A stretch of DNA of 61,868 nt, filler included, from Dugesia japonica (lineage: Eukaryota), in the NCBI GenBank assembly GCA_001938525.1. It is 6 parts of 6 records of this genome, joined end to end, with 100 filler letters (N's around TTAATTAATTAA, not from the genome) between each part and the next. Parts side by side here need not be neighbours in the genome. Positions count along the whole stretch, not along the records: positions 1 to 11,256 come from MQRL01497790.1; 5 more parts are not named here. One strand, written 5' to 3'. Below are positions 1 through 27,400 of this stretch, in pieces (the stretch's first letter is position 1; every line of letters starts with the position of its first letter). Made by a program: the position numbers and the translations under genes. A model generated the notes under the pieces. The model was not told the origin of the DNA. It made no database searches and saw only the letters and a program-made list of their open reading frames with translations.

Positions 1-244
1 ATCATTGTGACGAAAGTTTCAACTTGGGTTTTCCACACCCTCTCCTGATTCTGGGTGGCGGCCATCTCCGCTTTAAAAGTCAGACATTTCCGCTTATAGC
101 GTTTTACCTTAGCTTCGGCCGTGGTGGTTTCCGCTTTCCATCGCCTCTTCGCTAGTTTATAAAGATNCCAGGTAATCTCCTTGTCATCACTATCTTCTCG
201 TAATTTCTTAGTTGGGACCTGGAACCTATTCAAAGACGAATGCA
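1..244 (-). CDS. Cassette ORF3 copy A (partial), coiled-coil protein
   Basis: After acceptor TTTCAG|TG reads xHSSLNRFQVPTKKLREDSDDKEITWxLYKLAKRRWKAE..., homologous to ORF3 of copies B and C; open to the window edge. Confidence 0.7.
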
Positions 245-480
245 CTGAAATATAAACAGGTTTAATATGCTACACTTTACTCAATGTTACTAATACTAGA
301 AAAGTGGGGTAGTCTTGACTACCACCATTACTAAATGAAATGGATCAACCCAACCTCTTTACAAAATAAAACAAAAATATACTAAAATTGAATTATTATC
401 ACCAGTAAACTGCCTCACAAGAAAAGTTGAAAATAACCACAAACGAAACAATTATTTATTTCTAACAAATAACCAAAAGT

Positions 481-837
481 TTAAGAGGGGTTATTACTAG
501 TGTCGGTATTGGGGACGGTATTTTCAACGTCAGCTACCCCATTCGGCTCCCGGACTCCCCAGAGAAGATTAGTGATGAACGTTTGTATCGCAGGAGCTGG
601 GGGAGTAGTGGTAGGTTGATAGGAAAAGGAGGTTGCTAAAGTGCGATCCGGGCCTGTCCACGCCTGGTATCGCTGGCGTTCTCCGAAATCGTTAATGCGG
701 CCAACGATTGATTCGACCGGCGGTAAATTTGCCCGGTTTACTAAGATTCCGGTATCCTGATGATGCGGGTTATGATATCGTCGTAGAGTTAGCCGACGCG
801 TTCGCCTATCGACGAAACGTATCCATATAGAGTCCAT
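481..837 (-). CDS. Cassette ORF2 copy A, 118 aa unknown protein
   Basis: Intact ORF, clearly homologous to 18546-18893 (DRRTRR, NLPPVE, WTGPDRTL, NLLWG.REP); acceptor TTTAG 3 nt before ATG. Confidence 0.75.
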   Translation of the reverse strand: MDSIWIRFVDRRTRRLTLRRYHNPHHQDTGILVNRANLPPVESIVGRINDFGERQRYQAWTGPDRTLATSFSYQPTTTPPAPAIQTFITNLLWGVREPNGVADVENTVPNTDTSNNPS

Positions 838-986
838 TCGCTAAATAAGGGGAATATAGTTTAATTTATGATTGATAACTTTCTTTGAGTTAGTTAAATA
901 TTAATGGAAAGGAACAACAGATATAAACAGCTCAGTCAAAGATCTATTCAGAACAATTAACAATAATGGACAGATTTTATCCCTGC

Positions 987-1181
987 TTAGTAAAATGCAT
1001 TTTCTGCGTCTAGATCTACCAGACCCACTAATGGGAACATTTCCGTGAAACAGCACAAATCCGTTTCATCTGGATGTTCAATGCGTCCTTTTTTGAGGAT
1101 ATGGGCGAGTAATTGTCTTAAACGAGTGGTTTGCCGCCGTCTTTTTATCCATTGGAGAGTACGCCTCAACTCTGCTGGCAT
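987..1181 (-). CDS. Cassette ORF1 copy A, 64 aa basic-helix protein
   Basis: Motif QLLAH...G.(I/V)EHPDETDL.C..E conserved in all four copies. Confidence 0.75.
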   Translation of the reverse strand: MPAELRRTLQWIKRRRQTTRLRQLLAHILKKGRIEHPDETDLCCFTEMFPLVGLVDLDAENAFY

Positions 1182-2586
1182 GACGGAATGAAAGAAAAAT
1201 CGAATTTTAATCGTAATTTAAGGATTAGATCCTCGAGGAGAATTTGTTATATTGCAAATAGATTGCACCGCCTCTAATTCACGTTATTCATTTTGTGGAT
1301 ATTTCAAAGTGAGGTCCTACTGTTACTGTTAAGCTTATCCCGGTCTTACAGCGTTCGGGCAGAAAATTATTAAGTTTAGATTCAACGTTTAATGACGGGC
1401 GCTAAAATTGTTGAGATGGTTGGTCGAGATGGTCATAATTCGTTATATCATTATTATCAATAAAATTTATAAAAAACACCAATTTTATTAATTATAATAT
1501 TAATTAATCCTTGCTAAATTTATGGTTATTAAAACCCGCGCGTGCTATTGTTGCCCAGGAATGTCTTTTCTCTAGGTGATTGAGTCAGTGTATCGTGAGT
1601 AGGTATGCGACACACCCTCTTTTTATGTGGTTATCGTAAGAAATCACCAATTGAGTTTATGTGCTGACTCAAGCGATTGTAATATGTTGTAAAATGTTTT
1701 CTCTGCTTTCATAATGATCGGGTAGCAGCAACGTGGATATTTCTAAAGGCCATCTCATACATTTGTGGAATTTATTTATTAAATAATTATCTGCTATCTG
1801 CGAACCTAAAATTTGTTGTTAGGGGAGCAAAAGATTTTTCTGCGGAATGTTTCCATGGAATTTTCATTCAAAGCTAGCATCGGAATCAGACAGAGTTAAA
1901 GTCAACAACGGCAATTATATTTAGCAACTATTCGATTGCACACATCGTTAGTAGGAATATTGGTAGTTGATTGAGGTGTTTACTGATTCTATTTACACAT
2001 TGTAAATAACACGGATTTACCCTTTATTTCAATGTCAATTCTGGTGATTTCATCGTAATAAATTTTGTTATTCATTTTATTAATTTTTAAAAAAAAATAA
2101 ATCAAGTATAACCGACATTTCTATTCAAATTTTATACATTATATATTTATTAGTTATAAAGAGTAAAAAAGAAAATCTACTAGGTTTAGCATAATAATTT
2201 ATTAACATAACTATTATTCATATACGATGTTAATTAAAATAACATATTACTTGGTGTTGTAGGATTAAAGACTTTCTTCAACGGGTTTTTGGTGGACAAG
2301 ATAGATTAAGTTGACTAGTTCTGATTATTGGTCCGGTATTTCGTTCTTTTCGTCTTCTTGAAACAAGTAATATTAACCGCAACACAAATGAAATGTTAAT
2401 TTACTCTCGATTTCCAATATAGACAAAGTAGTTGCTGCGCGATAACCACGTAATACAACGAATTTCTTGGTACTTCCTTGACTTGTATAAGTTATAATCA
2501 CAAAATTTCAGAGTTACTTTTTGAGTATATAAGTAGGCACAACTTGTGATGATTAGACTGAATAATTCTGCTAAAATCAGGGGTCC

Positions 2587-2790
2587 TTTTATAGGATTTC
2601 TGAGACATCCTGACTTGTTATTGATTTGTTGATTATTTTTGGATCAACGTTTTTCTGTTGTCATTGGTTCTCATGCCATTTTTCTACGATTTTCTATGAA
2701 TTTTGGTGCCATGATTGGCAGCTATTTTTATCCGGACACATGGCATTTGTGTCTTTGTTATATTTTTATTTTTAAATATCTGATTGGTCT
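2587..2790 (-). promoter_or_regulatory. Putative promoter of cassette copy A (TATAAAA plus upstream CCAAT boxes)
   Basis: TATAAAA on minus strand at 2587-2593 in context AAATCAGGGG..TTTATA shared with copy B (7054-7059); several ATTGG boxes upstream, also in copies B and D. Confidence 0.5.
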
Positions 2791-3834
2791 AATCTTGAGG
2801 ACCCTGCAGCAACCCTTTGGAAGGTGGTATGTTTTTCGTTTTTGTAATTTCAGTTGCCCCTTGATGTTCTCTCTTCATTTTTTCTTGTCCAGATTCTTTC
2901 CGACTTCCCTGATCGAAGTTATCTGGATAAAACAGATTTTTAACTAATTTTGCTTCTTTTTTTATTTTAAAATTAATTAATTTTCTTTTGTTAATTAATT
3001 ATTTTCCATAACGTTTTTCTATGTTGTTTATTATTAAATTAATAATTGTTCTTAATTTCCAAAAGTAAGTTGCTTTTATTTTACTCGGTTCATCATATTC
3101 ACCTTTGGTTTTATTTCGTTTCCTTCTCCTGCTGCTTTCATTGCTTCATTTTCCATTATTATTGACTATAATGGTCCTGCCATTCTTGTTTGCTGATTTA
3201 TTTTTCAACCTTAATCTTGTTTAGCGGGTGTTTCACCCCAACAAATATACTGAATAGACTACTTCAAATTAAAGAAGTAATCCTGCTTATTTTCTTTTAA
3301 AATATTTATTGTGCACTGTTAGCAGCTGCTATGTTTTCTCCAGTTTGCATCTAAATATTTATCAATAAATTATATGTTATGAGTAAATCCAGTGAAAATT
3401 AATTCTACCACAAAATAGTAATATTAAAACATTTAATTGTCTTACTTATTTTCTTTTTTTATTTGAAATTTCTTCCATTATTAATACATTTAACTTTTAT
3501 GAAACTCTTTAAGAAATTTATAAAACTTTTCATAAAATTTTTATGTTGGATAATTAAACATCCTAACATGTTTTGGGATTCTACTTAAGTTATGAGCAGA
3601 AAAATTTTAAAAAATAGAAAAAAAACAGCCCTCAGGGGTACCCCTTGAAGAATTTACGCAAGTTCCCTTATTAGGTTCTCGGTGCGAAGCGGTTGACTTC
3701 CATCACATATTTGGAGTTCACACTTGCACACCTTTAGTTCGGGTTCAACATTTCCCATTTTAATAAAGGCTCTTGAAATATTAACCATAAATTAGCAAGA
3801 AAATTTCTTTTACACAAATATGCTTATGTTACAT

Positions 3835-4123
3835 TTAATTTAAAGCTTCAGGGTCAAGCCACTGGGTCGGCTCGTCATTTAAAAAGTCGATTGCGGCCTC
3901 ATCATCATTGTGGTTTCATCTTATCCACGTTTCCGTGATCTGTTTAACTTGCTTAGCTATTTCATCCTGTTTTTTATTGATCAGCTCTAACTTCTTGATT
4001 AACACTGTGTTAGATGTTGACACAGAGAGCGTTTGCAACGTTTAGAGTAATGTCTCTCGACTAGTAGTTTTTGTATTAGCTCATGGCAACATTCGAGGGA
4101 GTTTGGCAATCTGATTCGTGGCA
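3835..4123 (-). pseudogene. Cassette ORF4 copy B (premature stop)
   Basis: TTTTAG|TG CCA CGA ATC...; C-terminus AAIDFLNDEPTQWLDPEALN matches copies C and D. Confidence 0.65.
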
Positions 4124-4226
4124 CTAAAAATAAACATGATAAAAACGAGAACCCGTTACGCAAACAATATGTAGTTAATAACAAGAGTTTGATAATACAA
4201 TTTATTAAAGCAACCAAAAGGAGCAG

Positions 4227-4582
4227 TTAATTTTTTGTCTGAGTCGACTTATCAATCATCAGTAGCTCCAGAGAAATACGCTTACGCAGTTCTAATAATT
4301 AAGTCACCAGTTTATTCTCACAGTCATGGAGGGACCGGATAACGTTAGCAAAAGACTCAAGTTGGCGCTTCCAGATGCTCTCTTACGAATGGAATGCTTC
4401 TGCTTCTACTCTATGTTCTCGGCAACGAGCCTCGTAACGCCCTACTTTGGTCTGGGCGAAAACTACTTCGGCTTCCCATCGGCGTTTTGACAGTTTATAG
4501 ACATCCCAAAACATAGCGATGTTTTCGCTATCCTCTCGCACCTTTTTGGTGAGAGCAACGTAACTGTCTCGTGAATTGTTCA
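4227..4582 (-). pseudogene. Cassette ORF3 copy B (two in-frame stops)
   Basis: WDVYKLSKRRWEAEV...IRSLHDCENKLV...LMIDKSTQTKN, collinear with copy C. Confidence 0.7.
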
Positions 4583-4758
4583 CTAAAAGAAGCTACTAAT
4601 TAATGTTTGCTAGAATTCGCAACGCTAACAGTTTAATATTATTATTCCAAAACCCAACTTAAATGTTTAACGAAATACCAAACACCAAAACGTTGAAGTC
4701 AGATGATAAAAAAATTAACGTAAATACTATTTATTGTCAAGCAAATATTGATGCACGA

Positions 4759-5138
4759 TCAATTCTCGTAACCTCTAATGCTCCACATATAGTCGTTAAT
4801 AGTTTCTCTTATTTCCGAAGGAGTAGGAGAATGAGCGGAAGGATTATGGATTGAAGACGGCTCAACCTGCCAATCTCGTTTAGTATGCTGAAAACCATTC
4901 TCGCCCGTTGTAGTTGTCGTGGTAGCGAAATACGTCACGCGATTACAGTTAGGACCTGTACAATCATAAAAATCCTGCCGCTCAGTTGCGTCCCAATGTA
5001 CTTTGTTATTAGCGTCTTCAACAGATAAATTTCGATCGTTCTGCAAACACACTGGCATTTCTATTAAAAGATTAGTGTACCGTTTAAAAACCATCTGGTT
5101 AGTACGGCGATCCAAGATTAACTCCCATTTAAATTTCA
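4759..5138 (-). CDS. Cassette ORF2 copy B (divergent)
   Basis: Same position as other ORF2; shares W..I.DRRT, TGP..R and 'INDYMWSIR' similar to 'INNLLWGIR'; begins at acceptor TTCAG|TG. Confidence 0.6.
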
Positions 5139-5260
5139 CTGAATACAAGAGAAAAATTATTTTAGATAGAGGAAGTCAGTTAGAATTTCAAACAAAAATA
5201 TTAATTCAATAATTTTTTAATACAGATAATAATTTATTTATAAGCAATAACAAAGCATAG

Positions 5261-5446
5261 TTATAAGTATTGATCTAAATGGACTATAAGTTTTGACGGG
5301 AATATTTCTAAAAAACACTGCAGGTCCGTCTCATCCGGATGTTCAACTTTCCCTAACGACAATATATGGGCCAATAATTGCTTTCGACGTGCCTTCTGTC
5401 TTTCTTTGCGGATCTGTCGGACAGTTTCGTACAAAATTCTGGACAT
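5261..5446 (-). CDS. Cassette ORF1 copy B
   Basis: QLLAHILSLGKVEHPDETDLQCFLEIFP; acceptor TTTAG 4 nt before ATG. Confidence 0.7.
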   Translation of the reverse strand: MSRILYETVRQIRKERQKARRKQLLAHILSLGKVEHPDETDLQCFLEIFPSKLIVHLDQYL

Positions 5447-7860
5447 TTTCCTAAAGTAAGTTTATGAAAAATAAACATAATTGAAATATCATTTGATTTA
5501 TTTTCGGCCTATTTAAAACAAGAGTAAACGAAAATCGATATACCTCAGAATATTAATGAAACTCAAAAACACGAATACCCATCATTATGCAATAATAATA
5601 TTCCTAATGATAACCTTAATAAATTAATATTAATAATGATTAGGCCAGTAATAATATTTTTATCATTAATATTAACAATAATAGTCCTGATAATTGCATA
5701 AATAATAATCGTAAATAAATTATAATAATAATAATAGCAGAACTCGGAAAATTGTTAAAATTTAAAACTGATTAAAACAGAAAGTACTGTTTATTTGACT
5801 ATTAGTGATTGGCGCTATAATTGTAATACTGTCGAAGCGAATATTAGTCAAAACATCGAGACCAAAAGGTCGGTGTAGTGACATCATCGTTATTCAGCCA
5901 AGCGGTGACAAATTTGAGTCCCAGAACTGGATCAACCCAGGAGGTTAAACTATCTAGCAAAACTGATTATCAATGAAGAAAATACTGAATTTGTAAAAGT
6001 TTATAATTGTGCAAGTAAGGTGTTAGTCACCATAGAACTAAAAACCCAAAAAAAGTATTAATTTTAATAATCAATAATTAATTAGCAGTCAGTGTTCGTC
6101 TTAAAATCAACACTAAGGAAATGGTGGTGGAGTATAAAGATTTTACACACTCACTAAATTTTCTACAAATCAGAGTTATTACTATCAGCTACATCGGGAC
6201 ATTAATAACTCGATTAGTTGTAAGACAAACTGTTAATCTGATAATGGATGAGTAATAGGTGTGCGGTCTGCAGTGCAACATGTATACATAAAAAATCGTC
6301 TCCTACAGTTAGTTTGTAGGTTCTTATCAGTCATCGAAAATAGTGTGTAAATTGCTCATTTCCATCATGCCTCATGGTCTGGAATGCATAGCTCGTTTTC
6401 AATGCCATTTCCTAATGCCGATTGAAAATTAATTTTTTCTCATGGATTACAATATATTCAAAGGGAAAGGGTTACGAAGTTGACAAGAATTGAACGAAAA
6501 TTATTAGATCGGAGATAGTCACATTTCACTCTTACGGTAAATTTTTGTTAATTATCAAATAAAGTGTTATACTGCCATTTAGTGAAAGAGAGTACTATGA
6601 TAGTGAAGGAAGCAAATTCTAAACGTCTATCAACAAGGACTTATTAACATTCCACACGTATTCTCAATCGAAAACCTGGACAACTGGAAATTAATGAAGT
6701 AGTGGAATTTCTTAATGATTATGCTAATTTAATTGGATCTGGTTTACCAAACATGTGAATTGTTTCTATGAAATAAAATTTGTGTTCTTATACTACTCAT
6801 TATCATTTTTTACTGGCATGCAACAGATAATCATAGATAAGGTTTGAAAAAGTTTTTATTAAATATTAACACATTATATGGTTAAAATAACAACAAATAA
6901 CATTACTTTTCAAAATTAGGACGGTAAAAGTTGATCCAATTAATTCGTTTATCCAGAATTGCGCACTTCCAAAGAGATTTTCCACGTAATAACCGAGTTG
7001 TAGTATTAACAAATGTAGATTTTTTGGGGGTAAATCAACTGAAATCAGGGGGGTTTATACTTCCTCGTCGACACACCGAATTTTCTACCATTGACCGGTT
7101 ATTTTTATTTTTGGTTAACCGTTTCTGATTGGCAATAACTCCAAAATTTTCAGACTTTCTACGATTTTCTATCATTTTGTTGGTGCCTATTTTTAGAGCA
7201 CTTGCTGATTTTCAGGGCTTTGTTTTCCGTTTATCTTATGGCTTCTCATATGCCTGATCTTTAGACCCTTCTGATGATGGCAATGTTTTCTGTCACCAAA
7301 TTCAATTCCTCCACGTTATTATACCTCTAAACTTTCTTTCCTGGACTTCCTCATATTTTCCTGAGAGAAGATAATTTCCTTTAACTGATTTTCACACAAT
7401 TAAATTCCTTTTTTCAACAAAATTAATTAATTTCTTCCATTATTTTAATTATAATTTTAATAATAATTTTCTTGTGTTTTGATTATAAATTATAATTCTT
7501 GTAATTGGATTTGATTAATATTAATATTTTATTATTTCTGTTACTTCTTTATTCGTTCTGTATTTTCTTCTGGTCATCTGTTGATTATTTATTACAATTT
7601 ATTATCAAGATGACAATTATTATTGATTAATCTCCACGTTTCTTATTGCTTCTTTTTACTACTCAATGTTTGGGTCCCTAGTCATATTTCCTTCTTTGAT
7701 CAGGTGTTTCACCCCAACACATGCACTATTTTTATTAACTTCAAACTTTTACATCTGTTAAAGATACTTCTTTCCTTTTCCCACGAGAAATGCCGATTTT
7801 ATTGTAGCCTCACAGTAAATATGCAATAAAATTTAGCAACTTTTTTTCAACCACATTTGT

Positions 7861-8045
7861 TGGGGTTCCACCTGAGTCGGGTGGTAATAAAAATGAGGCT
7901 GGGGAAAAAACAGCCCTCAAGGGAACCCGTTCAAGAATTAAACCTACCGCCCCTAGGGTAGGTATTCAGTTTATGGTGGTTGACCTCTCCCTTAATGGGA
8001 GGTGCACACCCATAAACCTTTGTATTCGGGTTCAATAGTTTTCCC
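7861..8045. ncRNA. Conserved multi-stem structured terminal element (also ~3574-3756 and ~17375-17557)
   Basis: Stems GGGTTCC/GGAACCC, GGCTG/CAGCC, ACCTACC/GGTAGGT, GTTTATGG/CCATAAAC; stem sequences differ between copies but pairing is retained. Confidence 0.55.
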
Positions 8046-8102
8046 TTAACTTAAACAAAATTTTAAATCAAATAATTCTGGGAACATTTATTAATACAAC
8101 AT

Positions 8103-8500
8103 TTATAGCTCATTTAATACGCTAGGGTCTAGCCATTAATCTGGGTCGTCTATTGTAAAATTGAAGGCGGCGACATCGTCGTCATTGTTCCAATGAATCC
8201 AGGCTGGATTCCGAATCTGTCTGGAGAGGTCAGCTATGTACTGCTTTAAAAAGTCTATTTTTCGTAACAGTAACTGCCTGGTATCGGCCTCTAGGGCTTT
8301 GGTTTGGATTGCAAAGTCGTTTTGCTTACGGACTACCAAATCCAATTTTTTTATGAGTTGATTCCTTTGGTCAAGGTGCTTAAGGAAAGCTTGGTCTGCT
8401 TTGCGTTTTAAGTGTCGCTCTAATAACAGGTGGCGTAAGATGCGGTGGCGTAAGACGCGGTGGCACCTCCTCAAACTAGTAGGAAACGCGATTCGAGACA
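8103..8500 (-). CDS. Cassette ORF4 copy C, basic N-terminus, coiled coil, acidic tail (late premature stop at 8136)
   Basis: ORF track 8136-8501; reading through the TAA gives WLDPSVLNEL as in copy D (QWLDPGVPDEL); starts at TTTAG|TG. Confidence 0.7.
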
Positions 8501-8619
8501 CTAAAGAAAAAGTATAATTAAATTAATGAGTACCTAAGCTACGACGCGGGAAAACAAATAACAGAGAAATTTCATACAATTAAATATTTTATCGTTTCAA
8601 TCAATAATGCAACATCAAG

Positions 8620-8979
8620 CTATGAGAGGCTCGTCTGAGTACTTTTGTCGATCATTAGCGGTTCGAGGGGGATTTTCTCCCGGAGAATCAAAATGTCGTT
8701 AACCAGTTTATTTTCTCGGTCATGGCTGGACCGGATAATCTCTGAAAAAGATTCCACTTGTTTTTTCCAAGTGCGCTCCTGTAAATGGGAGGCCTCCGCT
8801 TCCTTTCTAAAAAGAACACATTTTTTCTTATAACGGAGGACTTTACTATTCGCAGTGGCCACTTCTGCCTCCCAACGTCGTTTGGCGAGTCGGTAGAGGT
8901 CCCACATCATTTCGCGGGCCTCGCTAGTGTCTCGGATTTTCTTGGTTGGAGCTGGGGGGGCGATTTAACGATGAATGCA
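8620..8979 (-). CDS. Cassette ORF3 copy C, coiled coil with C-terminal DKSTQT
   Basis: ORF track 8620-8910; 5' part from acceptor TTTAG|TG at 8979 has a +1 shift in a C7 run. Confidence 0.7.
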
Positions 8980-9182
8980 CTAAACGAAAATATCATAAGA
9001 ATTATTTCTCTTCATCGACTTGCTGATTAATCCTCTTATATTTGTTCAACTCTACTCAAAGCATGAAAACACAGAATAACAATATTAAAGGTAATCTTCC
9101 CAAGGGGCTAAAGAGTATATTAACACTACTTAAGACACTTATTTATTCAAAGAAACACAAATTTTATGATTATGAATAACAT

Positions 9183-9528
9183 CAAGAGTCGGGAGTGGTA
9201 GTATCAGGGGAACTGTATTTTCCACATCCGCCACCCCGGACGGTTCCCTAACACCCCAGAGCATATTAGCTATAAAGGCTTGAACTACTGGTGGAGGAGC
9301 TGGAGGTTGGTACCGGAATGGAGTGGCGTGGCTACACTCAGGACCATTTCACTGGCGATAGTTTAGTCGCTCTCCAAAGCCCTGAATACGAGCAACAGCT
9401 GCTTCGACGGGAGGTAGATTTGATCGGTCTACCAGGATCCCGGCATCTCGAGTGTAGGGATTGTGGTGCCGTCGGAAAATTATTCGACGGGTTCGCCTAT
9501 CCATGACTCGCTCCCATATTGATTCCAT
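9183..9528 (-). pseudogene. Cassette ORF2 copy C (internal frameshift)
   Basis: MESIWERVMDRRTRR..., downstream LWGVREPSGVADVEN is in another frame. Confidence 0.65.
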
Positions 9529-9667
9529 TTCTAAGAATGACGAAATATTAGTAAACTCAATTAACACATTATACAATTACAATAAACACTTAAATGTATG
9601 ATTAACACGCTACGCGGAATTTTATTCAAAAGATCATTTTAACAGATAACTATCACCGAAGTAAATG

Positions 9668-9850
9668 TCATCCCTCATCCCGATCTACGTTCCTTTCCAA
9701 GGGGAATATCTCGGTGAGACAGCACAGGTCTGTCTCGTCTGGGTGTTCAATTGTTCCCTTTGTGAGAAAGTGGGCTAGTAACTGTTTGAACCGGCTAGTC
9801 TGGCGTTGCTTTTTTATCCAACCCAATGCCTGATCTAATTCTGTTGGCAT
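9668..9850 (-). CDS. Cassette ORF1 copy C
   Basis: QLLAHFLTKGTIEHPDETDLCCLTEIFP. Confidence 0.7.
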   Translation of the reverse strand: MPTELDQALGWIKKQRQTSRFKQLLAHFLTKGTIEHPDETDLCCLTEIFPLERNVDRDEG

Positions 9851-11300
9851 GAGCTAAAGAAGAAAATGGTTAACTGTTGTTTTTTCCTTTTGACTTAATT
9901 CCCCGGATCAACTTATTGTAGCAACTTGTTATTTGATGGGGGTCATATCATGGAAGGGTAGAAATTAAAGGAGGATCGTTACCTAGGATCATCGCAACCT
10001 GGTTATGAGGGTAATGTTAATTCTAGCATAAAATGATAGTTAATATCACCGCAAAAGTACGTAACAAAATAATTTTCTTTTCATAATAATATTCGTGATA
10101 AAGATACCTGTTATGGCCCATGGAAGCACGACCATATCGTTGCATCTGATAGTATCACCAATCCTTATTCGGAATGGTAACCAGCCCAATTTTTAATTCA
10201 ATTCTCCGATTACTCTAACAAGTTGACGTCTATTCCCCCCAAAACGCTATTATTACTATTAATGGCCAAATTCCTGTAACACTGGTTATTATAAACGTTA
10301 TAACATTAATTTTCATCAATAAAAGCAACAATAATGATAATATAAGCACAAAAAGGAAAATTAAGATTATTTTCTAGTTTTTCTAATTTTGAATTTCTGC
10401 CTGTTATAGTTGCCTAGTGATATTGTTTAAACGGGGTATATTGGTCTCACTCGTGTGAGTGTGTGCTTGCCAGTTTAATTTCGTATATGTGTGTATAGGC
10501 AGGTAATCTAACTAAAGTAGATAATATCAACTAGTTACATCACTACTAATGATAGGAATCTCGACTGATCAAACTTAGTGATGTTGGGGGATTTTCGCAT
10601 GTCAAAAAACAAAATTTCTTTATAATGTACATACTCAACGAGAAAATTTTTTTCACTCCTATAGAGTCGGGTCACAAAAATTTGGCTGCCACTAAAGATC
10701 ATGGAGATTTTAATAGATCAGAGCGTATTAAGGTTATTTTTGGAAGTTATTTGATTGCCATCTCTCCATGATTTCGTTGGAATCAACTGCAGTGAGTTGT
10801 AATTTATTAATTTTCTTAAATAAATAGTTGGAAATGGTTTTCTTAATTGATTATTTTATTATTATACTTCAGTCTAGGCGTGAATCGTAAAATTATGGAA
10901 AGAGATTAAACCCAGTTTAAATTCTGGAATCTAGCTGTTAGGGTGTGATTAATCCAGCAACATACATTTTAGAATTACCATATTTACGTATATCATATTA
11001 TTTGTGGATATAAAAAGAAAAGCGATTACTTTCTTAATAATCAATAATTTCAAGGGATTCTTAGTTTGAACGGGATTAATGTCACGATGATTCATGATTT
11101 ATTAGTTATCGTTAAGAAATAATAATGTACGTTTTTATAGCATGAACAAATTTTATTAAGATAAATGATATTCATCGTTAAAAATTATACCACTTTTACA
11201 CAATTAAAATAATAATTTACTTTTTAATATTCCTGTAAAATTTTCTGCAACAGGTTNNNNNNNNNNNNNNNNNNNNNNNNNNNNNNNNNNNNNNNNNNNN

Positions 11301-11312
11301 TTAATTAATTAA
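11301..11312. other. Artificial scaffold linker TTAATTAATTAA in N runs (also 22094, 32009, 41317, 51217)
   Basis: Identical palindromic all-frame-stop 12-mer centred in N gaps five times. Confidence 0.9.
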
Positions 11313-11389
11313 NNNNNNNNNNNNNNNNNNNNNNNNNNNNNNNNNNNNNNNNNNNNTATATATATATAAAGCTGTATAATACGAGAAAT

Positions 11390-13400
11390 ACATGTCACAT
11401 TTAAATTATTATGAAGCTGATATACCAATGAATTTAAAAGATATCCCGAAATTTGAAAAAGAAAATTATAGATTATCAATAAATGTCTTATTTTGGAACC
11501 CGCATTGAGGACGATGATGTGGTCATGACACACTATAATCTTGTCATAATACATCGATCGAAAGCTGTTTACAGCGAGAAGATTAATTTATTACGGTTGA
11601 AGGATAATGATGATTTCCATTACACAGCACTATTGAATTTAAACCATGTAATAAATAGAGATCGAACGAATTGTGTAAGAATACAAACATTACGATGTCT
11701 AAATTGTCTGAATGGATTTCACTTGAAGGACAAATTTGTAAAACAGAAGCTAATTTGTGGTTGAATTCAAACGGGCACTACACACTGTATTATGCCGACT
11801 GAAACCAANTTAAAATTCCAAGATTTCAACAAGGCAGTTACTCTCCTTTTTGTATTATATGCTGATTTTGAATTAGTTTTATCTCTCAGATGAAAAATAT
11901 TTCCAGAAATATCTACATGTTTCGGCTGGTCGGTTGTAGGTAAATAATTTTACTAATAAAGTGAAATACAGCAAGTACTTTGGAAATGACTGCTATTTTG
12001 AGCTTTTAAAGTCAGTTAAAGAATAAAATAATAATTTACTAATCCCTATTACAAAAAACATGGTAATAAGCAAATTATAATGTCCCCTCACATGATTGTT
12101 TAGACCAGCCCGAAATTGTTATTTATTTAAACATAAGCTCATAAACCCAGTTCGAGATCACAACCATTTTACAGGAAAGTATAAAGTAGCTGCGTGTAAT
12201 TTTTGTAATTTATCAAGAAGAGTTCATATGCAACTACCGGTTGCGTTTTCTAATTTGAGAGTGGATGATGAGTATATTTATATTTATATTTTATTGCTAC
12301 ATACTCGAATATGGACTCAGCAGATTCCAAAATGAAATATTAGTTGTATTTCTATGACTTTTGAAAAAGTCCTATGTTTAATAGTGCACCAAAAAAAATC
12401 ATCTACTATTAAATTTATTGAGAGTTATCAGTTTATTTTACAGTAAAAGAAGTTCAAGACGGTAGGATAACGATATCAAAGGGAATATTTCCTTATAATT
12501 ACGCAACTAGTTTGCAAGTTTTGGTTGAAATAGTTGACATGCCACAAAAGTTGGAGGAAGTAAATGAAGAAGATTAAAAAAAGGTGATCAAGATGTGGAT
12601 GCTGGCAAGTTGTTATATGTTAGTTTATTTGAAGTTGGATCTGCTTTTGTTAGCGGATTTTTTTCAATAGTTAAGAATTAAATCATTAAATTTAGAGTCT
12701 TTCAATTTTTTCGGAATACCATGGATGAGTTTGGCATCATCATTGATGTCATTAGATGAGCAAATTGAACTGTTGAAAGATAATGACATGTACACATGTT
12801 TTAAAGGTGGAATAAGAAGCGGGCTTACATTCATCAATTAACACCATGTGGCATCTAATGACAATACTGATTTATTGTATATAGATAATCACAATCTATA
12901 TGGTTGGTCATTAAGTCAGAAATTTCTCTATGCAGATTGTGAGTTGGTCTATAATTTATTGGAAACAACGCTGGAAGAATGTAAGACAGGTGACCTCAAC
13001 TTGTTACCAAATTAATACTCATTGGTGGTAGACATGGTTATTTTGGAGGAAATTTACGATTGCCTAAACGATTTCCCAGTAGCAGTGAAACATCATAGTT
13101 CATCAGGATCAAAAATTGATAAATTGTTGTTAACACATTACTCAAAAAATAACTATATTATTTATCGGAGGCTGTTGTAAATGTATATTCAGTTGGGTGA
13201 ACAGATGATAAAAATGCACAGAGGAGTTCAGTTTAGAGAAGGAAATATGTTTAAAAAGTATATAGATATTTATACATAATGGATGTCAAAAGCAAAATCG
13301 TAATTGGAGAAAAATTATTATATATTATTCATTAATAGCTTAAAAGGAAAATCTGTGGAAAATTTGAAGAAAAGAATTAATGTGCGCTTGTGCATTATAA
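11390..13400 (+). pseudogene. Polinton/Maverick protein-primed DNA polymerase B relic
   Basis: YADFE, PVRDHNHFTGKYKVAACNFCNL, GGIRSGLTF, LLYIDNHNLYGW, NSLxGKSVEN; many stops and frameshifts; homologous to 28400-30350. Confidence 0.85.
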
Positions 13401-13709
13401 AGTAATAAGAAACCATCAGTTATATAGCATAAAAAATAATAAAGTTGTACTCAGTAATAACGACGATAACAGAGTGTGGATTCGCAAGAATACATCGATT
13501 TCATTTTGGCACTACACATAAGGTCATATATAAGACCAATTGTAGTATTTTTCTTACAGAACAATTACGACAACAGATAAATCGAAGCTGGTATATTTTT
13601 ATATTATCGTTAAAATTACAATGATTAAAAATTTGTTTTAATATTATTTAGAAATTGTGTAATTTTGATTTATAATAAATATTTAAAAGAAGTCTGATTT
13701 GAAAGTAAC

Positions 13710-16500
13710 TTAACTGGCGACCACGGCAACAACGAAAATTAATTTTAGAAGCCTTGTCTAAGAAGAATTTGGAACTTATTAATTTTAATATTAAAAAATA
13801 TGATTGTAATGATTCTTCATAAGCCTCAGCATGGCTGAAAGAAATCAACGAATAGCTCATTGTGAATGATTTACGCTTGATGGGAATTATCGATGAAGAT
13901 ATTTACGCAATACGGAGAAAGAGTTATTCAAACGTGTTAAAAGGAGACTGAAGTAGTAATGAGAGACGGCCTCAAAACCAGCCGTCAATTAATTTTAAAA
14001 CCAATAATAATGTAAGATATGAAAAACCAAGAACAGAAATTTCAACGTATCAGAGAAAGTTCAACGAAAGGATGTCACAACCGGTAATTACAGAGAACAG
14101 AACGTATGGTTTAAGTAGGAAACTGGCAGTTTCAAGATGTCTTTTTAACAGATATAGAGGATTACCTGAACTACAAGAAGAACGATTACGGGAAGGACAA
14201 TGTTATTGTAGCAGAGAACATGAACACATGCGTTATCAATGTCTAATAAAATATAATTGTTTGATATACGGGAAAGCTGGACACAATTTCCGGCAATACT
14301 ATCTTGTGAAAGTTTGATCTAATAAGGGAAATATTAAAATTCTATGCATCCAGAGGAACAAGAGGTACAAATTGACAAAGATGAAATCTTTGAAATGCAT
14401 GATATTATCAAAGAAAAAAACCAGAACAACTCCGTTGCATACATTTTGTCAGTGGAGTTAACTTAAGAAGAGATAACTTGAATCGAAATAATCAAGACAG
14501 AAGATAGATGTATGAAAAAGAAGACGGAAGAGCGTGAAGAAGAGTAGACATGAATGGAGTAAAATTGGAAATGTTGTGGGATTCGGGAACATTGATTACA
14601 ATTATGAGCGAAGAGTACTGGTTGAAGGTAGGAAAACCAATCTTGTTATGTTGCAATGTCATGTTAAATGGGGTATTTTTGAGCAGTGAAGAGAGGCCGT
14701 TATGATTTGTTGAAGTGAGCGTTAAATGGAATAATACAGTGAGAGTTATTAAAATCATAATTTTTAAAAAGACGATCAAAGTTTATGGATGGCATAGATG
14801 CAGTGAAAATTTTCGGAATAAAACTGACAGAAGTTAATAACATTGAAACAGAATGTTTTGGAAGAAACCACTCAAACGATGATAGAAAGAATTACGCATT
14901 AAATGTCTTCTAAAAAACAAATAACAAAGATCTAAATTATCTAATTTTGAAGTTTGTTGAAATATTCATGGCGATTAATTTTGATATAAAACATACAAAA
15001 CAAATAATATACGAAAAATAAGTATTTGGAGATCCAATTGTTCAACATCCCCGGAGACAACCGATGCACTTGAAAAAGAATATTGACGAAATGATACTGC
15101 GTTTAATAAGTATTGGGATAATTAGCATATGTAAAAGTTGGAAATGGAAAAAAAGATGGGTTGGTAAGAATGTGTGTCGATTATTGACAACTGAATATGA
15201 TCACTGAAAAGTTTCATTTCCGATGCCAGACATCCAGTTATTATTGGCTTGCTTAGCAGGTGCAAAAATACTTTGTTCAATTGATCTAGGACAAGCTTTC
15301 TATCAAGTAGAACTATCAGAAAGCTTGAGAGATGTTGCGGTGTTTAGTACAAAAGAGGGTCAATTTAGGCTCAATTGGATTCTATTTGGGTTAGCAACGG
15401 CAACGTTTCAAAAGTTGATGCATGATTTGATGGCAGGAGTGATTTTTAAAGGTCTCATCGTATATCTAGATGATATATTAGAGTTTGAAAGAACGGTCGA
15501 AGATCATAATGATATTTTGAAAGAATTTTTCAACAAAATAAGAGAATCAGGATTGAGAATAAATCCAGAAAAATGTAACTTTTACCAAAAACAACTGGAC
15601 CTTTTGGGACACACAATAAGTACATGAGTAAAAACAAACGAAACTAAGATTTAGGAAATAAAAAATGCCGAAGAACCAAAATGTTCATCTAAACTCAGAT
15701 CTTTTTGCTTAACGAATTACTACAGGCGTTTTATCAAGGATTACGCTAGAATTGCAAGACCTTTGAAGCTATTTTAAAATGGGAAAAAAGTTTGATGTGG
15801 ACAGAAGCATGCAGAAAACGTTTTGAATGACAAGTTATGTAATGCACCAATCTTAGATTACCCAAGAGAAAATAGAATGTTTATCCTAGATACTGATGTA
15901 AGTTTCGGAGCTATCGGTGCAGTGTTGAGCCAAAGAACAGAAGATAGTGAAGAGGTGGTGATAGCTTATGAATCCAGGAACTTTACTGCTTATGAAAAGG
16001 GATACTGCGTTACAAGAAAAGAATTGCTGGCATTACATGAATATGTGGTACATTTCAAGCAATATCTATATGGAAAGAAATTCTTAGCAAGAAAAGATCA
16101 CAAAGCACTGATATTTATGAATAACAAAAAAACCGATAAGCCCACGATTTCAGACGTGGATAGCAAATCTGGGAGAATATGATTTTGAGTTAAAATATTG
16201 AAAGGGGTTAAAACGCAACAATGCTGATGGATTATCACGAATAAATGAGAGTTTATGCTCACAATACTAAACAGTACATTTGGATTCCATGGAAGAAAAA
16301 TCAAGAGTAAAATATATTAACAACAGAATGAAAACATTATAAAAAAAATTCGGAATGCACAGAAAGATGATTCAATAATACAAAGAATAAATGAAATAAT
16401 TCAAAACGAAGTACGGCTAGTAGAAAAGATCATTCAGGGAAATTATGTGGATCAACTTGATCGCGAATTGAAAATTGATTATGGATTGACGAAATAAAAT
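13710..16500 (+). mobile_element. Decayed Ty3/Gypsy LTR retrotransposon (PBS, gag, PR, RT, RNase H)
   Basis: PBS-like TGGCGACC at ~13715; LWDSGT protease; IDLGQAFYQV and YLDDIL RT (15223-15627); FILDTDVS and KELLAL RNase H (15823-16182). Confidence 0.9.
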
Positions 16501-17293: not shown

Positions 17294-17309
17294 TAATAAA
17301 AATAATAAA

Positions 17310-17349
<40 letters not shown>

Positions 17350-17371
17350 GTAATAATAATAATAATAGTAA
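17294..17371. repeat. (AAT)n microsatellite interrupted by copy D; resumes at 21421-21475
   Basis: AAT arrays flank both sides of copy D. Confidence 0.85.
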
Positions 17372-17614
17372 TGTTGGGGTTTCACCTGAGTTGGATGGTA
17401 AGTAAATTATGGCTGTTTTTAAAACAGCCCTCAGGGAAACTCTTTCAAGAATTTACCCTGACGTTCTTGGGTCAGGTATTCAGCATATGATGGTTGATCT
17501 CTCTCTTAATGGGAGGTGCATGCCCATAAGCCTTTTATTCGGGTTCACTATTTTCCTTTAACTTACACAAAAGATTTAAACCAATGATACTCGAGACATT
17601 TATTAAAATGACAT

Positions 17615-17957
17615 TTATAATTCGTCTGGTACGCCAGGGTCTAACCACTGGTCTGGGTCAGTCATTAAAAAATGGAAGGCAGCGACAACTGGCGGGAAAG
17701 GTCTGCTATGTATTGTTTTAGGAATTCTATTTTCATTTGTAATAGTTGTTTTGTTTCTGCTTCCAGGGCCTTGGTTTGGGATGCTAGGTCACTCTGTTTC
17801 TTCACTATCAAATCCAGCTTTTTTATTAGTTGGTCTCACTGGGCTAAATGTTTAAGAAGGGCCGGATCGGTCTTACACTTTAAATGTCATTCCAGTAACA
17901 GACGGCGCAGCGTACGATGACATCGGCGAAGACTGTTAGGGAAATTGATATGAGGCA
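17615..17957 (-). pseudogene. Cassette ORF4 copy D
   Basis: TTTCAG|TG CCT CAT ATC AAT TTC CCT..., internal TGA, ends DPDQWLDPGVPDEL. Confidence 0.65.
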
Positions 17958-18075
17958 CTGAAAGAAATTAGATTAGTATATGGTAACTTGACACAAGAAT
18001 TTAAGTAAACATTAAGATAAACTCGTAAGACAGATTGAATGACAAATTTATTTACAACGAAAAATTATTGCAAGT

Positions 18076-18368
18076 TAGTTCCGGTGAGTTTAGTTGACCT
18101 TCTCGATCATCAGTGGTTTGAGAGGCATTCTTTCTCGTAGGAACAATATGTCCTCAACCAGTTTATTTTTTCGGTCATGACTAGACCGCATAACCTCCGC
18201 AAATGACTCAACTTGTCTCTTTCAAGTTCGCTCCTGCAAGTGAGAGGCTACGGCCATCTTTTTAAAAGTGATGCACTTTTTCTTATAGCGAGTCACCTTA
18301 CAGTTGGCAGCAGCTTTCTGTGCCTCCCATCGGCGTTTTTCCAGTCGATATAGGTCCCGGTGAATGCA
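18076..18368 (-). pseudogene. Cassette ORF3 copy D (deleted, acceptor mutated)
   Basis: DLYRLEKRRWEAQ...MRSSHDRKNKLVEDILFLRE. Confidence 0.6.
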
Positions 18369-18545
18369 TTAAAAGAATTTTAAAACCAATCAAACATTAC
18401 AAAGTGAACCGCTATCTCTATGACTGATATTGTCATAGTACATTTACAACTTGCGCTTAAAGTTAATTTCAAAATCAAAAGAAAATATGATGAAACTAAT
18501 CTGAAGACAACAAGATTTTTACGACCAAAACAAAAAAATAAACTC

Positions 18546-18893
18546 CTAATGAGTAGTTGCTGAGTCAGTTGCGGGTGTAGAATTCTCTGAATCCTTGCTA
18601 CCTGATGGTTCTCTTATCCCCCAGAGTAAATTATTGATAAGTGCCTGTACGGCAGGTGCTGGAGCTGCTGGTTGATACTGGAAGGTTGTGACAAGTGTCC
18701 GATCAGGCCCTGTCCAATTATGATGGCTACGCCGCTCCCTGAAATCCTGTATTCGAGCTATGATGGCTTCCACTGGGGGCAGATTAGACCTATCGGCCAA
18801 GATCCCCGCGTCATGATTGTTGGGGTTAAGATGTCGTCGGAAAATCACGCGACGAGTCCGTCGGTCTATTATACGTTCCCATATAGATTCCAT
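18546..18893 (-). CDS. Cassette ORF2 copy D, 115 aa
   Basis: Intact, homologous to 481-837. Confidence 0.75.
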   Translation of the reverse strand: MESIWERIIDRRTRRVIFRRHLNPNNHDAGILADRSNLPPVEAIIARIQDFRERRSHHNWTGPDRTLVTTFQYQPAAPAPAVQALINNLLWGIREPSGSKDSENSTPATDSATTH

Positions 18894-19014
18894 TATCTAA
18901 TTAAAGAATGAGAATAATTATTACAAATAAAAAAAAATTATATAAGTAGCTATAAAAACGCCAACAAGGTGGTACATATATTTTATTTCATGATAGTGAT
19001 GCCAACAAAAGAAA

Positions 19015-19197
19015 TCAATCCGCGTCTAAGTCGACTCCTGCCATTAAGGTGAACATTTCTGCAAAGCAACACAGATCCGTTTCGTCTGGATGCTCAATTG
19101 TCCCTTTAGTCAATAGATGAGCTATTAACTGTCTTAACCGGGCAGTTTGACGTTGCTGTTTTATCCATCGAAGGATACGGCGCAATTCCGCTGGCAT
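19015..19197 (-). CDS. Cassette ORF1 copy D
   Basis: QLIAHLLTKGTIEHPDETDLCCFAEMF. Confidence 0.72.
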   Translation of the reverse strand: MPAELRRILRWIKQQRQTARLRQLIAHLLTKGTIEHPDETDLCCFAEMFTLMAGVDLDAD

Positions 19198-21420
19198 AAA
19201 CTAAAGGATTAAACTGTCAATGCTAGTAATTAAATTCAGGGTTGAACCAAAACAAAATTTCTTGTTACCGCACGAGGACATTTACCATAATAACAAGTTT
19301 AATAATCCCGGGATAATGTTGGTGATGATCATAATAATAAAATTAATAATAGTTGTAGTACGTATATTAATAACCAACAGTTCTAATATATAAGAATAAC
19401 AGTCTTAGAACGTATAATAATAGCCACTGGCACCACCAGTAATGACAGAATCCTTTACTAAAATGATTAAGATAACATCCGGCAAGAACTACACTAATGC
19501 AAGCCATATTAATAGTAATTGTAGTAAGGATAGTAGTATTACTGATAACTGTAACCATGATAACAATACTAATAATCATAGTGCCAATAGCAGCAATAAT
19601 AGTAATCACACCATCAATACCAATAACAATTATCACCATCATGTCAGTAACACTAATATCATGAATACCAATAATGATGATGCTAATAACGGCAGTAATA
19701 ATAATATTAATAATACTAATAATAACAATATTAATAATAGTAGTGATAATATTAATATTAATAATAATAACGATAATAGTGACAACAACATTTATGATGT
19801 TAAGGATACTATATTAGTATAATCAATTTTAGATTATCTTTTGCTCAAATTTGTTAAAATTGGGAGTTGCGCTGAATTTNGTATTTTCCCTCGTAACAAT
19901 AAAATAATATGTTTTTTGTAAACTTTAATGATTTGACCGAAGTTCGCAAATTAATTAATTGTGGGAAGTGGTTGCTTAACAGCCAAAAAATTTGTAATGG
20001 CTAGTATTACACATTATAGTTAAAGGATAGTATGTGTGTATGCAAAAAGGCATTATTGTACATCGATCGATTCACCCTGGTTACTATGGTGAAATTAACC
20101 ACGACGGCAACTTAAGTCACTATAATGAGTAACTAGTTGCTTATTTTTATAGGGAATTTGGGGGTAATTACTCACGCTCATAGCTGGATTAACTCCAACT
20201 AACTCGTTTAATTTGTAGATCCTGTGGTGGGCATATAATTCTTAGATAAACCTATTTGACACAAAAAAATTTAAAATAAAACTCATTTCACTGTAAATAA
20301 AAGGTTTTTTTTTTAATTAATAATTAGAGCTAAAATTCCATTCAATTTATTTTAATTTATTATAACATAACAGAACACTTCCTATCAAGTTTTTGATAAG
20401 ATTTCCGCAACGGGGAATAACAGACGAATGAACTATTTTTCCTTCTTTTAATTGATAACGAAAGTCACAACTTTTGCTGTTTTAGGACAATTGAAAATCA
20501 GCAAGGTTTAATGAATAAAATTACTTTGATGCGCGATAACTGATCACGTCGATTTCTGTTTGTTGATATCGTAACAAAATTCTGCTGAGGGTTTTTCTTT
20601 TGTGAATTACCGAATTGTATATTAGTTTTACGAGAGATTTAGTAGTGTTTTTGTGATGATCTTCTGCTTATTTCATGTTTCCTTAATATATGACTTTTCT
20701 TCGCACCCCAACTTTGTTCATATTTGTTGGTTATTTATAACCGGAATTTTCGGCTTCCTATTGGTTCTAGTGCCAATTTACTAAATTTTTTAGAGTTTTA
20801 GAGTTCAATTGGCGGTTATTTTTAAAACTTCATGTAATCGATTGTGCTTTATCTTTTTTTTATTTTCAGGTTCCTTATTGGCCCAATCTTGAAATTCCTG
20901 CAGCAACCCTCTGGATGGTGGTAAGATTTTCTTCTTAACAAATGTTTCTTACTATTTTCTTTTTGGATTTTCTTACCCGAACTCTTTCTGATTTTCCCAA
21001 GCGAAGTTATTATTTAGATTTAATTTCCATTCAAATTTAATTAATAATTCATCCTTAATTAATTCTTCTTTAAATTTGCTTCTCCTTGTATTTAATATTA
21101 TTTAATATTCTATTCTAATTATTGATTCGATGCAGGTTACATTTGTCCATTAAAGATCTTTTTCCCTTCTATTTCGGTAGATGTTCATTTTTAGTTCTAT
21201 TGTCGGTTGCCCTGAGGTTTTATATTACTTCTTCCAACGCTATTTGTTTGCAATGAGTNNNNNNNNNNNNNNNNNNNNNNNNNNNNNNNNNNNNNNNNNN
21301 NNNNNNNNNNNNNNNNNNNNNNNNNNNNNNNNNNNNNNNNNNNNNNNNNNNNNNNNNNNNNNNNNNNNNNNNNNNNNNNNNNNNNNNNNNNNNNNNNNNN
21401 NNNNNNNNNNNNNNNNNNNN

Positions 21421-21476
<56 letters not shown>

Positions 21477-22249
21477 TAAAATACAAAAGTGAAATTAGCA
21501 ACACCAATCATAATAATCAAGATATTATTAATGATAATAATAAGAACATAATAATATTTTATATAATAGGATTAAGTGGCTATACATTATCCTGTGTATT
21601 TAGTTGGGAAAATTTTTAAGGCTTTTTAGTTGGGAAAAATTTTTTATGGGAATTTTTTAAATAATCCGTGCAAACTGTTCATTTTGTTTAAAAAATATGA
21701 AAATTTAAAAATTTTTAAATCAAATTTTTATGGAAATCCGGGAGAACCTTCGAAACTTCGAAAATTTTTGAAAAATTTTTTTATCGAGATTTTTACATGA
21801 ATCGATGGAGAATTCGATGNNGATTATTTTTCACAAATAAAAATTTTTCGAAAAAATTATTTCTCATCTTTACATAAAATAACTATGTTTATTAGATAGA
21901 AAATTCTTTGCTGATTCTAAATATATAAACCTTAAATCACCAAAGTTTATCCGGAATGAAATAAATAAGGTTTTGTGGTGAAAAATCTCAAAACTCAAAG
22001 TTTAGCGCTCAGAGCTCTGTGCACAGAGAACTGCTATCGACTCAAATTTNNNNNNNNNNNNNNNNNNNNNNNNNNNNNNNNNNNNNNNNNNNNTTAATTA
22101 ATTAANNNNNNNNNNNNNNNNNNNNNNNNNNNNNNNNNNNNNNNNNNNNATCATATAAACCTATATAAAATCCATATAATAACCTATATAAAACTATGTA
22201 ACACTTAGTTTTGCTTAGTAATCTACAATTTGTATTGTTCTTGTTGCAT

Positions 22250-22628
22250 TTTTATTGTTGTTGATGATATGTATTAAGAGGCAAATAAAGAAAAAGATTT
22301 CAATAATTTATTCATAAAAATATCGAGACGTCGTAATGTGACTGTTATATTTATTACTCAAAATCTATTTCGTCAAAGAACCCACAATTTATACGTGCAA
22401 AATTTGGTTCTATTAAAACGTCCTAGAGATCAGACTGTTGTTAATTTTCTAGCAAGACAAGCATATTCAAATAATAGACAATTTTTTATTGAATCATTTC
22501 AAGATGCAACAGAAAAACCACATGGATATCTATTTCTTGACTTTACACAACAATGTACAGATGATTATAGAGTAAGAACAGATATATTCAACCCTAATGG
22601 TATCACAGTATATAAACAAAACGGGTAA
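22250..22628 (+). pseudogene. Polinton A32/FtsK-like packaging ATPase, C-terminal part
   Basis: Walker B-like VDDM, SRRRNVTVIFITQNLF, KPHGYLFLDF. Confidence 0.85.
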
Positions 22629-22647
22629 TTTTTCATAATATAACAAA

Positions 22648-23400: not shown

Positions 23401-23406
23401 TGTAGA

Positions 23407-27194: not shown

Positions 27195-27400
27195 GAAAAA
27201 TTGTAATGCTAATGAGATTTTTTATTAAAAATTGCATCACTAATGAGATGTTTTATTTTAAATTACATCCCTGATGAGATTTTATATTAAAACTTGATTC
27301 ACTAATGTGATGTTCTATTAAAAATGGCATCACTGATGAGATTTTCCATTAAAAATTGCATCACTAACATGATTTTGTATTGAAAATTATCACTCTTATG
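27195..27400. repeat. ~33-bp minisatellite, about 6 units
   Basis: Units like AAAAATTGCATCACTAATGAGATTTTTTATT. Confidence 0.75.

Follow-up and report, generated by a model that had tools for sequence, protein, structure and literature searches.

We analyzed a stretch of 61,868 nucleotides from Dugesia japonica (assembly GCA_001938525.1, filler letters included), here called the window, in which a repeat of about 4 kb with four small open reading frames (ORFs) occurs in four copies. The window is joined from parts of six records, and its 100-base gap markers with TTAATTAATTAA midway (11257-11356, 22050-22149, and three further places) are assembly linkers, which explains the "repeats" of 100% identity in the self-comparison of the window. 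A first-pass annotation, made from the sequence alone, had described four homologous copies, and these were confirmed (50-64% DNA identity over aligned columns). They share a single orientation and are named A to D:

1-3243, minus strand: copy A; truncated by the window edge within ORF c; right end exact
3567-3570, no strand: left target-site duplication CATG of copy B, seen in the sequence
3571-7719, minus strand: copy B; 4149 bp; the sole copy with both ends; left end degenerate (TTTTGGGA), right end CCCCAACA
7720-7723, no strand: right target-site duplication CATG of copy B, seen in the sequence
7858-11256, minus strand: copy C; left end exact; right part missing, with the assembly gap at 11257
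17372-21258, minus strand: copy D; left end exact; flanked by (TAA)n tracts; right end falls in the gap at 21259

The right end of the repeat, GGTG..CCCCAACA, was exact at 3243 (A) and 7719 (B), and the left end, TGTTGGGG, was exact at 7858 (C) and 17372 (D). The TG..CA termini of the first-pass annotation therefore hold at these four ends, but copy B, which was said to begin with TGTTGGGG, does not. Its left end (TTTTGGGATTCTACTT) matches that of C at 12 of 16 letters, which makes B a TT..CA copy. The family ends read TGTTGGG..CCCAACA, and the consensus TGTTRNR..YNYAACA for the ends of long terminal repeats (LTRs) was exact in four of the five ends present, the left end of B being degenerate. 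The 4-bp CATG duplication claimed for copy B is present, provided that the second letter of B's left end is a mutated G. Copy B was the only testable one of the four (1/1). The ends share a short inverted repeat of 9 nt, with another 7 nt out of register. In none of the six end pairs did end-to-end similarity exceed that of shuffled sequences past base 20 (59-475 of 500 shuffles were as good), and it stops at about base 18. The spacers between A and B (327 bp) and between B and C (138 bp) are not related to one another.

About 60 nt from the left end lies the best-conserved noncoding motif (86-89% over 35 nt; 3620-3656, 7905-7939, and 17421-17456); its minus strand shows a short palindrome together with a T run. 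A search of window positions 1-22000, this motif included, gave no Rfam match, and no tRNA gene was found in the whole window. A conserved structure in the left 210-230 nt was not supported, because only C folded strongly (z = -3.9, compared with -1.1 for B and -1.7 for D).

The ORFs are termed a, b, c, and d, counted from the right end, and encode about 60, 115, 115, and 120 amino acids (aa), respectively (a slash marks a presumed splice boundary):

ORF a, minus strand: 5261-5446 in B (61 aa, open), 987-1181 in A, 9668-9850 in C, 19015-19197 in D; basic helix, then an EHPDETDL motif
ORF b, minus strand: 4759-5138 in B (open, starts AG/TG), 481-837 in A (open), 18546-18893 in D (open), from 9528 in C (stop-broken)
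ORF c, minus strand: 4227-4582 in B (starts AG/TG, two stops), 244 to the window edge in A, 8620-8979 in C (early frameshift)
ORF c in D, minus strand: deletion and stop, without an acceptor
ORF d, minus strand: 3850-4123 in B (starts AG/TG, broken), 8136-8500 in C (open, 121 codons), from 17957 in D (two stops)

The fixed ORF order, on the minus strand and across copies, agrees with the cassette of four genes proposed at first, but none of the four copies contains four whole ORFs. ORF a is open in 4/4 copies, ORF b in 3/4, and ORF d in 1/3; ORF c is complete in none, that of A being open up to the window edge. The copies in the window are thus old and partly broken. Between most copies the ORFs were homologous with tblastn E values of 1e-11 to 1e-40, those of B's b and d being weakest (1e-4 to 1e-7), and ORF d of C and D shared 70% identity over 69 aa. 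No mutual paralogy was detected among ORFs a to d. All four proteins tested lack a membrane segment and include a basic patch, with 6-7 K/R within 15 residues; a heptad score did not set c and d apart from b. ORF d of C contains a 15-bp tandem duplication (8429-8464) that preserves the frame.

Selection was analyzed on the unbroken stretches of ORFs a, b, and c in 18 copy pairs, ORF d being outside this test. The proportions of synonymous (pS) and nonsynonymous (pN) differences were 0.65-0.96 and 0.13-0.47, respectively. The ratio of nonsynonymous to synonymous substitutions (dN/dS) was 0.08-0.26 in 8 pairs, and its upper bound was 0.05-0.23 in the 10 saturated pairs, values that are rough due to saturation. 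Second codon positions were conserved more than third positions in 18/18 pairs. The dN/dS ratio, which the first-pass annotation had named as a check on the ORFs, is thus not near 1. With dN/dS of ≤0.26 in 18/18 pairs, ORFs a to c evolved under purifying selection, a direction that is clear despite saturation. We conclude that the four copies descend from old, separate lineages that retained these proteins.

Sequencing runs from six studies of one organism contained this stretch or a part of it, and a second organism contributed a small share; the organism with the strongest match may itself be the source of the window. Contigs of four runs were aligned to positions 7680-7900. In all four runs, the contigs stopped sharply at 7719 and 7858, and the ends are sharp throughout the family. 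The summed contig depth inside the two ends was ~4100 and ~6400, versus 6 in the spacer, in run X1, and ~3400 and ~4400, versus 7, in run X5. The resulting ratios (~700 and 1060 in X1; ~470 and 600 in X5) are a rough guide, since summed depth does not equal copy number. No ratio was derived from run X3, in which the spacer was without cover. Inner parts summed higher, up to 48,559 over ORF c of copy C (run X3), and both ends were present in the second organism too (15 contigs). Roughly, the family comprises hundreds to about a thousand copies. The outer flanks of the contigs at both ends were mixed and AT rich (agreement, 0.51-0.63, counted over contigs among the top matches only).

These data bear on the idea that the copies are a host gene family or segmental duplicates with ends that arose by chance. 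The close spacing of three like-oriented copies (138 and 327 bp) would suit such duplicates. However, the sharp family-wide ends, the mixed flanks, and the hundreds of copies already contradict them, and the target duplication around B and the unrelated spacers also speak against them, so that we find this explanation hardly credible. As an observation in its own right, four copies from four distant lineages stand in one orientation within 1-21258, with 138-327 bp between neighbors among three of them; candidate readings of this clustering may be a hot spot for landing or a small-RNA cluster of the one-strand type.

Along the repeat, motifs for gene expression run one way, from promoter to poly(A):

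2590-2790, minus strand: candidate promoter of A with three CCAAT boxes (2783, 2714, 2663) and TATAAAA (2593); putative function
7054-7200, minus strand: candidate promoter of B with CCAAT exact (7128), CCAAC at the aligned place, and TATAAA (7054-7059); putative function
20877, 20808, and 20760, minus strand: three CCAAT boxes of the candidate promoter of D, with the three-box spacing of A
6899-6907 (B), 2404 (A), 11220 (C), and 20524 (D), minus strand: candidate leader splice donor A/GTAA, predicted and weak
8101-8107 (C), also in D, minus strand: second TATA-like box, TATAAAT, 248-250 nt from the left end and 80 nt before the poly(A) signal
3733-3747 (B, ACTAAA), 8026 (C, AATACA), and 17539 (D, AATAAA), minus strand: conserved TGAACCCG and poly(A)-signal motif, then a G/T-rich stretch

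The CCAAT and TATA motifs lie ~450-650 nt inside the right end, with TATA-like boxes after CCAAT. A/GTAA is found in all four copies, 1.2-1.5 kb upstream of ORF a. A pyrimidine tract and YAG precede 13 of 15 homologous ORF starts by 0-4 nt (12/15 at a strict pyrimidine cutoff; exceptions, ORF a of A and ORF c of D), compared to a background of 22 acceptor-led starts among 1220 ATGs in the rest of the window. Seven of the starts are AG/TG and lack the A of the start codon: b in B; c in A, B, and C; and d in B, C, and D. ORF b shows both forms, B having AG/TG where A, C, and D carry AG, 2-3 nt, and ATG. Since the distance from acceptor to ATG differs in phase between copies, the upstream exon would be noncoding, and since the AG/TG starts lack the A, the start codon would need to be completed by a leader whose last letter is A. 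No more acceptor-led ORFs common to the copies were found in the long intron. Downstream of the ORFs, AATAAA was present ≤50 nt after 9 of 13 stops tested, versus 7 of 26 background windows of 150 nt. The poly(A)-signal motif near the left end is 168-169 nt from the terminus in 3/3 copies, canonical in one and variant in two, and the second TATA-like box could be a candidate start of a short R region. This layout of splice acceptors and poly(A) signals, which the first-pass annotation had missed, is the most informative feature of the repeat.

Genes that lie close together, each with an acceptor and a poly(A) signal, could also form a host-type operon that is resolved by spliced-leader trans-splicing and passively carried by the repeat. 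Such trans-splicing exists in flatworms and would be available if the host is one, but according to the available text the flatworm leaders end in ATG (PMC12582326), and the frame that an ATG leader would open at the seven AG/TG sites is not the conserved one. It stays open for 0, 4, 0, 4, 15, 9, and 25 codons, while the xTG frame at the same sites, which is the conserved frame, is open for 126, 81, 66, 18, 41, 121, and 23 codons. We therefore judge such an operon to be very improbable.

In two oligo-dT RNA runs, 241 and 69 reads aligned, all with partial fits. Short RNA matches were concentrated in two places, the left-end motif (3620-3656) and ORF c (4306-4340), a distribution that suggests transcription of diverged relatives. 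The reads are too diverged from the copies in the window to reveal splice joints. The two runs disagreed in strand skew, and no use was made of it.

Both proposals of the first-pass annotation, a solo LTR and a nonautonomous element, survived the analysis, and we favor the first. The ends matching the LTR consensus, the short inverted repeat, the layout from promoter to poly(A), and the selection on the ORFs led us to regard the four copies, with some confidence although far from certainty, as solo LTRs of a giant Ty3/Gypsy-type element, whose LTR carries an accessory set of four genes with a predicted spliced readout from one promoter. The parent element would supply the integrase for its integration, and its 4-kb LTRs would recombine with each other so that single LTRs stay behind. 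One promoter and a shared noncoding leader, spliced to four alternative last exons, would serve all four genes; the leader would end in A and complete A/TG, its donor lying 1.2-1.5 kb upstream of ORF a or in the 5' region of the parent. ORFs c and d would be produced only from spliced RNA. With a separate poly(A) site at the end of each exon, four short mRNAs would result. The small proteins, with their basic patch and no membrane segment, may act in the nucleus or on RNA as regulators of the element. In the manner of Rev- or Tat-type proteins, they might allow full-length RNA to escape internal splicing and polyadenylation, or they might regulate the promoter. This regulatory role, at which we arrive by inference only, is the weakest step. 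Size and abundance, and these alone, would connect the repeat to the Gypsy-like planarian element Burro.

Several observations weigh against this interpretation. No primer-binding site, polypurine tract, gag, or pol was found beside a copy at the five ends in the window. The mixed flanks are expected of solo LTRs, and as contigs rather than copies were counted, a shared interior flank may be hidden among them, yet they offer no support. By pattern, the TATA box is exact in A only, and other GT sites score equal to or better than the A/GTAA donor candidates. Several internal poly(A) signals would hinder the production of full-length RNA, and no splice joints, RNA starts, or RNA ends were found among the 241 and 69 partly fitting reads.

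Finally, the cassette proteins offer no functional clue. In line with the first-pass annotation, which had seen no gag, pol, or transposase inside the repeat, no match to any of these was found with Pfam in 10 ORF stretches of the copies; matches to Pfam and PHROGs were below threshold, and ORF d was compared with these two collections only. A profile of ORF a, searched against 1.84 billion representatives, gave one match, an unnamed protein (P0001; 55% identical) on a 1041-nt contig, which is the only outside homolog of the cassette proteins. No homolog was found among longer proteins for ORF a (0/3408 candidates), with the profiles of ORF b (0/644) and ORF c (0/154), by exact sequence look-ups (0/10), in viral contigs (0/65 and 0/41 candidates), or in prokaryote genomes (0/87). 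The best E value against PDB sequences was 0.64, and the Atlas gave no usable match for ORF a. Predicted folds were of low confidence (ORF a, pLDDT of 62, two helices; ORF b, pLDDT of 45), and fold searches gave nothing usable (best Z, 5.1), the models being too poor for comparison. A single metagenome match to the left-end motif proved to be a bacterial gene, found by chance.

One leader with alternative last exons is the arrangement of the adenovirus late unit and of complex retroviruses. This virus-like economy, the orphan proteins, and the nearby Polinton-like debris (weak matches) would be compatible with an integrated segment or satellite of an unknown animal DNA virus, in which an integrase leaves TG..CA ends and the cassette is an early or accessory unit. 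However, the repeat lacks a capsid, a polymerase, or another viral hallmark, its ends and poly(A) placement suit an LTR, and it is dispersed in hundreds of copies. A viral origin therefore seems improbable to us.

The junctions between copies of the family brought up a further alternative. Four different head-to-tail junctions, from a right end to a left end, had a spacer of exactly 4 letters, and one of them was found in three runs. Further head-to-tail junctions had spacers of 7 or 19 letters, or none listed. Under random insertion, the expectation for the 4-letter junctions is <0.05, a value that is illustrative and based on assumed genome sizes. According to the available text of bioRxiv 10.1101/158386, double insertion at one site leads to a head-to-tail pattern with 4-nt spacing, as reported for DNA transposons, while tandem LTR elements share one LTR. 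The junctions thus resemble the pattern of DNA transposons; they count against solo LTRs and fit a stand-alone element at least as well. Such a nonautonomous 4-kb element would never have been an LTR. It would rely on a borrowed integrase of retroviral type, whether Ginger-like or taken from a retroelement or a DNA virus, and the genes would be its own program. Its layout from promoter to poly(A) would be self-contained, all four copies are solitary, and the flanks are mixed at both ends. Furthermore, TGTNR termini and 4-bp duplications, like a length of 2.6-7 kb, are also described for Ginger1 and Ginger2 in the accessible part of PMC2836005. In contrast to these elements, the repeat has no 40-270-bp inverted repeat, its end similarity ceasing at about base 18; no integrase is found within the copies (Pfam); and its target is not CCGG/CCGT (PMC2836005, same part). 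The sides of the tandem junctions are only 18-23 letters long, and the junctions could also stem from full-length LTR elements at one site or from integrated two-LTR circles. Moreover, long purifying selection on four genes would be harder to explain in a passive DNA element. On balance, a stand-alone element is possible, though we hold it to be unlikely. If it were one, the 4-kb unit might be a new and self-contained mobile satellite with four genes, virus-like expression from one spliced leader, about a thousand copies, a borrowed integrase, and a preference for landing beside its own kind, a proposal that we view as distinctly doubtful.

Two features of the insertion sites are added here. 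At the junctions from 7719 or 3243 to 7856-7858, three of the four 4-letter spacers start with GT, as does the left flank of D; the GT would point either to a preferred target or to two-LTR circles whose ends were left unprocessed. The tract around copy D is (TAA)n (17294-17371 and 21421-21483), and several contig flanks and junction spacers are TAA/TTA rich; the family may thus prefer TAA-type tracts.

Returning to the favored reading as solo LTRs, coding inside the LTR is known for sag of mouse mammary tumor virus and nef of human immunodeficiency virus, U3 genes whose RNA is spliced or internally promoted, although each is one gene in an LTR of ~1 kb or less. They resemble the cassette in this LTR-borne coding, a likeness in layout. 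The LTRs of Metaviridae and retroviruses share with the repeat the ends TGTTRNR..YNYAACA, AATAAA with a G/T-rich stretch near the 3' end, and a TATA-like stretch; going by the available text of PMC3601003, the repeat differs from them in being ~4 kb long, in holding four ORFs under selection, and in having splice acceptors as well as poly(A) signals in its interior. Burro exceeds 30 kb, with an interior of 25 kb and thousands of copies, and Ogre LTRs measure 1.9-6.5 kb (PMC6431247, in the part available). Burro/GYPSM1, likened here by description only, are similar to the proposed parent in their multi-kb LTRs (implied by size), copy number, accessory functions, and AT-rich host, but their extra domains are in the interior polyprotein or an upstream ORF, and that part of the source names no LTR genes (PMC6431247).

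Completion of a start codon by splicing, as predicted here, is described for env of springer-subclade errantiviruses of Drosophila (bioRxiv 10.1101/2023.08.03.551782, available text). There, the split is AU/G and was experimentally mapped for one gene outside the LTR, whereas here the predicted split is A/TG and concerns at most three of the four genes, which lie within the repeat. Small accessory ORFs under selection (70-110 aa), with alternative poly(A) between them, are also found in Gypsy-type elements of the MDG1 group, as far as the accessible text of PMC11952523 goes. These sORF1 and sORF2 are unspliced and lie between the LTR and gag, and sORF2 is a membrane protein (PMC11952523), unlike the four cassette proteins tested.

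No paper on LTR-borne genes of this kind was found among the literature listings; the primary Burro paper and its supplements were outside the search and may describe the repeat. LTR-borne genes are not mentioned for these elements in the available parts of PMC8532177, PMC11410931, PMC13238120, PMC13309565, and PMC13524379, and LTR coordinates are absent from the six Schmidtea mediterranea rows seen in the supplement of the last. Given its abundance, the repeat itself is probably present already in a curated library (as Burro). New here are the selection test on four copies, the swap between ATG and AG/TG in ORF b, the sharp family-wide ends, and the tandem junctions with 4-letter spacers. Retrotransposon LTRs are usually regarded as noncoding control regions. 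If our interpretation is true, a 4-kb LTR with four selected genes and splice-completed starts would amount to a regulatory layer like that of complex retroviruses in an invertebrate retrotransposon. Each solo LTR would retain promoter, genes, and poly(A) sites, so that hundreds of leftovers could still yield proteins, and these could act on the host or on intact elements. A stand-alone unit would represent a new class of gene-carrying element. Whichever applies, four orphan protein families are opened to testing.

The window contains other elements. A decayed Gypsy-type gag-pol fragment lies at 13950-16500 on the plus strand (reverse transcriptase, E = 3.5e-21; RNase H, E = 2.7e-26), and a second copy lies in the opposite orientation at ~40290-41270 on the minus strand, the arms being 75-87% alike. 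No link between these fragments and the cassette was seen in the window. Copies C and D were considered as the LTR pair of the first fragment (13.9-16.5 kb) and rejected, because the fragment is on the other strand and the copies are only ~64-69% alike. Debris at 11480-13500, 22200-25700, and 27700-30200, which we presume to be Polinton-like, includes two related stretches that are 72-73% alike; within the debris, protein-primed polymerase B (E = 0.008) and endonuclease VII (E = 0.018) were matched weakly. On the minus strand, an open frame of 1350 codons (55654-59703) is surrounded by exon-like frames (52183-53070 and 60347-61373). It had no Pfam or PDB match; its appearance suggests a large lipid-transport protein, of which it would be the tail. 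At 27209-27388 and 31322-31474 lie tandem repeats of 31 bp and 73 bp, respectively.

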